Shown: positions 60,867 to 61,260 of the stretch, in pieces | Numbering within the stretch: the stretch's first letter is position 1 | Layout of the letters: each line of letters starts with the position of its first letter | Source: a plasmid | NCBI RefSeq assembly: GCF_988243305.1 | Contig: NZ_OZ547137.1 | DNA: 64,000 bases | Strand: one strand, 5' to 3' | Position numbers and translations under genes: made by a program | The notes under the pieces: model-generated | The model's input: only the letters and a program-made list of their open reading frames with translations | Database searches by the model: none | What the model was told of the DNA's origin: nothing

Positions 60867-61175
60867 ATGGAACAGAAAATATTATCCGCAGAACCCCGCA
60901 GATCATTTTCAAATAAGTTTAAACTTCAAATGGTTAAACTGGCTTCACAACCAGGAGCCTCTGTTGCCCGTATTGCCCGGGAACACGATATCAATGATAA
61001 CCTCCTGTTCAAATGGCTTAGGCTCAGGCTCTGGCAGAACGAAGGGCGTATATCGCGGCATCTTCCGGTAACAACCTCTTCTGGCGCTGGCGTTGAATTA
61101 TTACCTGTTGAGATAACGCCTGATGAGCAGAAAGAGCCTATGGCGGCTCTTACTCCGCTTTTATCCACTCCTTAG
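60867..61175 (+). CDS. IS66-family TnpA (orphan)
   Basis: [53 protein letters not shown]. Confidence 0.6.
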
Positions 61176-61260
61176 TACCAGGAACGACAATGCCATGAAA
61201 TCCGGAATACTGATCTGAAATAAAGTTGTACCAGGTGAGCCCGCGGCCGGAACCAAAATA
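61150..61260 (-). pseudogene. Tn3-family TnpA internal fragment
   Basis: [23 protein letters not shown] matches a conserved Tn3 TnpA block as recalled. Confidence 0.4.

Follow-up and report, generated by a model that had tools for sequence, protein, structure and literature searches.

A probable dead fragment of a Tn3-family tnpA within a stack of mobile element remnants between idi and aggA on an enteroaggregative Escherichia coli plasmid

The window analysed here is a 64,000-nt stretch of plasmid DNA, to which all coordinates refer unless another record is named. In the spacer between its idi/isoprenoid-enzyme cassette and aggA, mobile element pieces follow each other in the order IS2 remnant, left inverted repeat (IRL) and 5' tnpA of an IS66-family element (plus strand), Tn3 piece of 88 bp (minus), IS1414 piece of 107 bp (plus), IS1414 IRL of ~22 nt (plus), ISEc23-like tnpC (minus), ISL3, IS21 fragment, and aggA. 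A multi-layer junction had been predicted at this locus and was found, with IS2, IS66-family, Tn3, IS1414, tnpC, and ISL3 pieces in order. Boundaries of the pieces were set by pairwise mapping to reference loci, and the features are:

60592-60777, minus strand: right-end remnant of IS2 (IS3 family), comprising the terminal repeat and the 3' end of orfB; 94.6-96.2% identical to an annotated IS3-like element IS2 family transposase, with a match to Pfam rve_3.
60778-61173, plus strand: left inverted repeat and first ~300 nt of tnpA (102 codons) of an IS66-family element, here element A; Pfam HTH_Tnp_1, E 7.8e-14.
61174-61261, minus strand: internal fragment of a Tn3-family tnpA, 88 bp and 29 codons, corresponding to residues 708-736 of Tn3 TnpA.
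61150-61380, minus strand: chimeric 76-aa ORF, named "Tn3 family transposase" in GenBank CP056358.1 (QLW67535.1).
61262-61368, plus strand: internal fragment of IS1414 (IS256 family), nt ~1128-1236 of ~1315 bp; 107 bp, 98.2% identical over 109 columns to IS1414 copies (reference loci L004 and L012).
61369-61390/95, plus strand: left terminal inverted repeat of IS1414, first ~22 nt (up to 27); 26/27 identical to L012 874-900.
About 61391-62280, minus strand: fragment of an ISEc23-like IS66-family tnpC, nt ~490-1380 of 1614; 94.3% identical over 891 columns to ISEc23 tnpC (reference locus L002).
62276-63996, minus strand: ISL3-family insertion sequence with terminal inverted repeats GGCTCTTCCGCAACCTGGGTGGA / GGTTCTTCCGCAACCTGGGTGGA, annotated as an ISL3 family transposase.

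A Tn3-like peptide stretch can be read in the third frame of the minus strand of 61138-61398, and blastn of 61120-61400 against all complete E. coli genomes split this stretch into four pieces of different source: 61120-61173 matched an IS66-family tnpA (100%), 61174/5-61261 a Tn3-family tnpA on the minus strand, 61261/2-61368 IS1414 on the plus strand (98.2%), and the rest an IS66-family tnpC. The original prediction placed a conserved internal block of Tn3 TnpA at 61150-61260; the fragment is present there, but its true span is 61174-61261, and the first 24 nt of the predicted interval (61150-61173) are IS66-family tnpA outside the Tn3 piece. The 29 in-frame codons, read on the minus strand as YFGSGRGL...VVPGT, scored 25.5 bits against Pfam DDE_Tnp_Tn3 (E 6.8e-6, profile positions 121-151 of 389), for which the gathering score is 24, and tblastn of Tn3 TnpA against the whole window returned a single significant match, to residues 705-736 (78% identity, E 2.8e-12). 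The alignment to Tn3-family tnpA genes that had been proposed as a check gave 88/88 identical positions to NZ_CP024280.1 36700-36787 (E 3e-37), 81.6% identity to an ISEc63-family tnpA, and 89.3% over a 56-bp core to the tnpA of Tn3 itself; identity to a remnant in NZ_CP159135.1 was 97.7%, and 26 PLSDB plasmids matched the piece at 99% or more. The Pfam score, the tblastn E value, and the 100% nucleotide identity all place the piece in the DDE domain of a Tn3-family transposase. Given this nucleotide similarity to Tn3-family tnpA, the observation stands, and the fragment is genuine, far beyond chance. Elsewhere in the window, tblastn with the TnpA of Tn3 and ISEc63 and blastn with three tnpA references returned no further Tn3-family fragments.

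Both ends of the Tn3 piece are internal to tnpA, of which the 29 codons make up ~3% (of about 1000 codons). Of D689/D765/E895, considered as catalytic residues of Tn3 TnpA, only D689 was borne out by the sequence; this first Asp lies in the motif ADGMRF, 19 residues ahead of the fragment start. The placement was therefore based on Tn4430 TnpA, in which the catalytic triad is D679/D751/E881 (PMC9579193). The fragment aligns to residues 696-722 of the Tn4430 chain, a placement that assumes that chain numbering equals native numbering and with which the position of Tn3 D689 agrees. The fragment thus lies past the first catalytic Asp and ahead of the second and includes no residue of the DDE triad; a full-length ORF of ~1000 aa with this triad is not present at the locus. 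Tn3-family transposons have terminal inverted repeats of ~38 bp, a resolvase/res module, and a 5-bp target duplication. Compared with the parent locus in NZ_CP024280.1, the window holds no terminal inverted repeats, resolvase, res site, or parent flanks beyond the 88 bp, so that the terminal repeats, resolvase/res module, and target duplication of a functional Tn3-family transposon are all lacking. On their own, the 29 residues, which come from inside the RNase H-like domain, would hardly be expected to fold. As far as can be judged from sequence, the 88-bp piece is very probably a dead internal scrap of a Tn3-family tnpA, one layer of the stack of element fragments in the idi-aggA spacer, and it appears to be inert and to do nothing. 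No finding speaks against this reading.

Directly left of the Tn3 piece lies a plus-strand IS66-family tnpA, as predicted, truncated to 60867-61173 and recognised by Pfam HTH_Tnp_1; its ORF spans 60867-61175, with a TAG stop made by the junction. In an alignment of 399 columns, element A was 97.0% identical to the left end, with tnpA, of an IS66-like element (reference loci L002 and L008); the homology ends exactly at 61173, and the tnpA of element A is just 76.7% identical to that of ISEc23. The element interrupts the IS2 remnant at 60777|60778, where related pAA plasmids carry on with IS2. Further left, on the minus strand at 58890-60461, is a low-GC cassette of idi and a gene for a 'class 1 isoprenoid biosynthesis enzyme', conserved across AAF/I and AAF/III pAA plasmids. 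On either side of this cassette is a copy of an 89-nt direct repeat of the IS2 end (58002-58090 and 60592-60680, 93% identical), and just inside these repeats are 114-nt AT-rich inverted arms (58148-58261 and 60478-60591, 76% complementary). Close upstream of the cassette is a divergent IS256-family remnant (58468-58714, minus strand), ~75% identical to the final 256 nt of IS1414.

On the other side, the prediction that the Tn3 piece was sandwiched between opposed IS66 pieces held for its left neighbour only, as the neighbours on its right are two IS1414 pieces and not tnpC. IS1414 is an element of ~1315 bp with imperfect 31-nt terminal inverted repeats and a 402-aa transposase gene in which astA is embedded. 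The locus holds just nt ~1128-1236 and IRL nt 1-~22 of this element. The internal piece belongs to the 3' part of the transposase gene, carries a 1-nt deletion that causes a frameshift, and lies downstream of the astA position (IS1414 nt ~788-901 in L012) without including astA; astA, encoding the EAST1 toxin, is absent from the 64-kb window. Terminal repeats were defined on the intact copy L012, with 31-nt arms at 873-903 and 2159-2189, and 61369-61389, considered as unexplained filler, proved to be the IS1414 left inverted repeat. At 61368|61369 this IRL meets, with no base in between, internal nt ~1236 of a second IS1414 piece of like orientation; one IS1414 may have inserted into another and been truncated afterwards, or the joint may have come about by self-targeted strand transfer. 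IS1414 copies have commonly decayed by deletion, and such decay is widespread (PMC12585946).

The fragmented minus-strand IS66-family tnpC of the original prediction was recovered further right, at about 61391-62280, frameshifted and without both ends. It gave Pfam DDE_Tnp_IS66 matches with E 1.6e-58 and 1.7e-22 on two overlapping ORFs, and in relatives PGAP annotates the span as a frameshifted pseudogene, N- and C-terminally incomplete. IS66-family elements carry tnpA-tnpB-tnpC in one orientation between terminal inverted repeats; at this locus tnpB is absent and tnpC is on the strand opposite to the left inverted repeat and tnpA, so that the two pieces do not make up an intact IS66 element. 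Over a common 611 bp, the tnpC piece was closer to ISEc23 (92.5% identity) than to the tnpC of the tnpA-type (A-like) element (90.0%). The high identity of the tnpC piece to ISEc23 (94.3%), set against that of the tnpA piece (97% to one element, 76.7% to ISEc23), makes different IS66-family elements the probable sources of the two pieces.

The ISL3 element cuts the tnpC fragment at 62275/6, and its far flank, which extends past the end of the window in reference locus L005, is the IS21 fragment, followed by aggA. Its transposase ORF (62303-63922, 539 aa) is intact in the window and has an internal stop in RefSeq relatives. The two flanks, tnpC on the left and the IS21 fragment on the right, are unrelated, with no clean 8-bp target duplication. 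In CP088797.1 (whole element) and in the O104:H4 pAA (its only retained 299 bp), the orientation of ISL3 is reversed, which suggests an ISL3-mediated inversion; the CP088797.1 copy has on both sides an inverted duplicate, 21 bp long, of the IS21-fragment flank.

The Tn3 relic is already known, in that the public record CP056358.1 labels the locus, where the Tn3 codons form part of the 76-aa ORF. The origin of its codons is mixed: 39 are antisense to IS1414, one spans the junction, 29 are from Tn3, and seven plus the stop are antisense to IS66 tnpA. Its product name, "Tn3 family transposase", therefore misleads, as tnpA accounts for just 29 of the 76 codons. The ORF could in principle be a real gene for a truncated TnpA-derived peptide, for example one that interferes with Tn3-family transposition, given that it is open, starts with ATG, is annotated in CP056358.1, and keeps the Tn3-derived codons in frame. 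We consider this highly improbable. Codons outside the Tn3 part are mostly antisense to IS1414 and IS66 tnpA, and the ORF scored 29.4 bits against NCBIfam transpos_Tn3, for which the cutoff is 500. The promoter/terminator scan showed no promoter-like site for it on the minus strand, the 40 nt upstream of its ATG contain no Shine-Dalgarno-like sequence, and RefSeq PGAP leaves the equivalent span without annotation in seven related plasmids. The location of the 29 residues inside the RNase H-like domain, between catalytic aspartates, likewise argues against a peptide that folds. From its composition, the 76-aa ORF would be an accidental chimera.

Positions 56000-64000 of the window are 100% identical to CP056358.1 (pRHBSTW-00670_2), an IncF plasmid with aggR, aap, aar, aatPABCD, and aggDCBA. 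These genes surround the locus, so that the window belongs to a pAA virulence plasmid of the AAF/I type from enteroaggregative E. coli. It is not CP056358.1 itself: identity of 100% is confined to ~56000-64000, so that the two are related but different plasmids. Over 1-56000, the tra region is 98.3% identical to that of CP056358.1, and several blocks are rearranged or absent. The virulence-region mosaic thus sits on an IncF backbone that differs somewhat, as would fit recombination between plasmids of the pAA type.

The complete mosaic was detected in 7 of 5,426 complete E. coli genomes, always on plasmids from human isolates (98.9-99.7% identity), one of which is annotated as from Brazil. Two PLSDB plasmids also carry it; the source was UK wastewater in one case and a human rectal swab in the other. 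Neither the 5,426 genomes nor PLSDB contained a record with only a subset of the three internal junctions. The short length of the Tn3 piece and the repeat-rich surroundings, which can confuse assemblers, might raise the question of whether the Tn3 similarity arose by chance or the mosaic is an assembly artefact. To this we assign an almost negligible probability: the piece matches a bona fide Tn3-family tnpA at 88/88 positions with an E value of 3e-37 and exceeds the Pfam gathering threshold, and nine independently assembled plasmids have the mosaic at 98.9-100% identity. Given that it is confined to one plasmid lineage, we infer that the mosaic arose once.

The junctions of the stack are of two kinds. 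Three have an exact IS terminus, namely IS2|IS66 IRL, IS1414 nt 1236|IS1414 IRL nt 1, and tnpC|ISL3 inverted repeat, and for this reason look like true transposition joints. The other three, tnpA|Tn3, Tn3|IS1414, and IS1414 IRL|tnpC, join internal sequence to internal sequence and all lie inside 220 bp; the first is blunt with no shared base, the second has one shared nucleotide (T at 61261), and the third has a microhomology of 5-6 nt (T-ATT-). Most likely, elements transposed one after another into older ones, and illegitimate or IS-mediated deletions then trimmed every layer. Insertion events would have been those of IS66 into IS2, of IS1414 into or next to the ISEc23 tnpC, of a second IS1414 end into the first, and of ISL3 into tnpC.

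Had the layers been trimmed independently, a run of three pieces as short as 88, 107, and ~22 nt would not quite be expected; one complex event would account for them just as well. The three pieces could be templated filler from one complex repair or template-switching (MMBIR/FoSTeS-like) event, which would have bridged a break from IS66 tnpA to the ISEc23-like tnpC with sequence copied from other loci in the cell (the Tn3-family pseudogene and IS1414). Such an event would account for the crowding of three non-transposition joints into 220 bp, with microhomologies of 0, 1, and 5-6 nt, for pieces that are all short and alternate in orientation, and for the lack of plasmids with a subset of the junctions in the databases searched. 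Moreover, a Tn3-family pseudogene with 100% identity to the Tn3 piece circulates among other plasmids of diarrhoeagenic E. coli, so that a donor template was present in this gene pool. However, two of the three junctions are essentially without microhomology, the joint between internal IS1414 sequence and IRL has the exact IS terminus expected of a real IS1414-into-IS1414 insertion, and the intact IS1414 within an ISEc23-like tnpC in plasmid p12A2 suggests an ordinary insertion that was later trimmed. Sparse sampling may be all that lies behind the lack of intermediates. We regard a single template-switching event as unlikely and favour serial insertion with subsequent trimming.

Virulence plasmids of the pAA, pINV, and ETEC types are well known to carry mobile element debris, and the debris described here matters very little for biology: it is an ordinary relic. 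Its use lies in the tnpA|Tn3, Tn3|IS1414, and IS1414|IRL|tnpC junctions, which are a clean marker of one AAF/I pAA sub-lineage without astA at the locus. The locus also shows the variability of the idi-aggA spacer across pAA plasmids, among which we found at least four different architectures. In agreement with this, pAA plasmids have been described to differ mainly in IS content (PMC11950199).

Among the closest relatives of the Tn3 piece is that on NZ_CP024280.1, an ETEC plasmid of strain ATCC 43896, where the 88-bp match lies in a nearly full-length Tn3-family tnpA pseudogene accompanied by a resolvase. This gene aligns to Tn3 TnpA residues 1-318 at 59% and 322-998 at 72.5% identity, and its larger part scores 782 bits against NCBIfam transpos_Tn3. 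While NZ_CP024280.1 keeps ~3 kb of tnpA and the resolvase gene, the window has just the 88 bp, with no flank in common. Shorter remnants of this Tn3-family transposon, ~1.1-1.2 kb long, occur on ETEC H10407 plasmid NC_017724.1, E. albertii plasmids, and NZ_CP159135.1.

In the idi-aggA spacers of the O104:H4 pAA (NC_018662.1), CP088797.1 (AAF/I), and pFORC43 (AAF/III), the flanks are as in the window, with the idi cassette and IS2 remnant on one side and the IS21 fragment and aggA on the other. In contrast to the window, all three lack the Tn3 piece and the Tn3|IS1414 junction, and their ISL3 is inverted or truncated. The O104:H4 pAA shares with the window the exact IS2|IS66-IRL junction, including 72 bp of the IS66 element, and like the window has an IS66-family element on the minus strand downstream, but it contains a complete and different IS66-family element (64% identical); its ISL3 is inverted and only 299 bp long, with the IS21 fragment and aggA contiguous downstream. 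CP088797.1 and pFORC43 have an IS1414 remnant that keeps astA at another position, between the IS21 fragment and aggA/agg3A (reference loci L010 11610-11723 and L011 8219-8332). An origin of the IS1414 piece of the window as a remnant of this astA-bearing copy is not supported, given that the copy lies between the IS21 fragment and aggA, which are contiguous in both the window and the O104:H4 pAA. NZ_AP028871.1 has IS30 in the idi-aggA spacer.

An arrangement similar to the right part of the mosaic was found in p12A2 (NZ_CP128591.1), in which IS1414 (plus) is followed by an IS66-family tnpC (minus) in the same order and orientation as in the window, with a tnpC that is 94% identical. A Tn3-family tnpA beside IS1414 in p12A2 is not the same element as the 88-bp piece: it has no nucleotide match to it, so that the resemblance is coincidental. 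The insertion point in p12A2 is 81 nt from the start of the tnpC piece of the window, and its IS1414 is intact, with the 3' remainder of tnpC on its other side, whereas IS1414 in the window is fragmentary. We regard p12A2 as a plausible precursor for the IS1414-tnpC adjacency.
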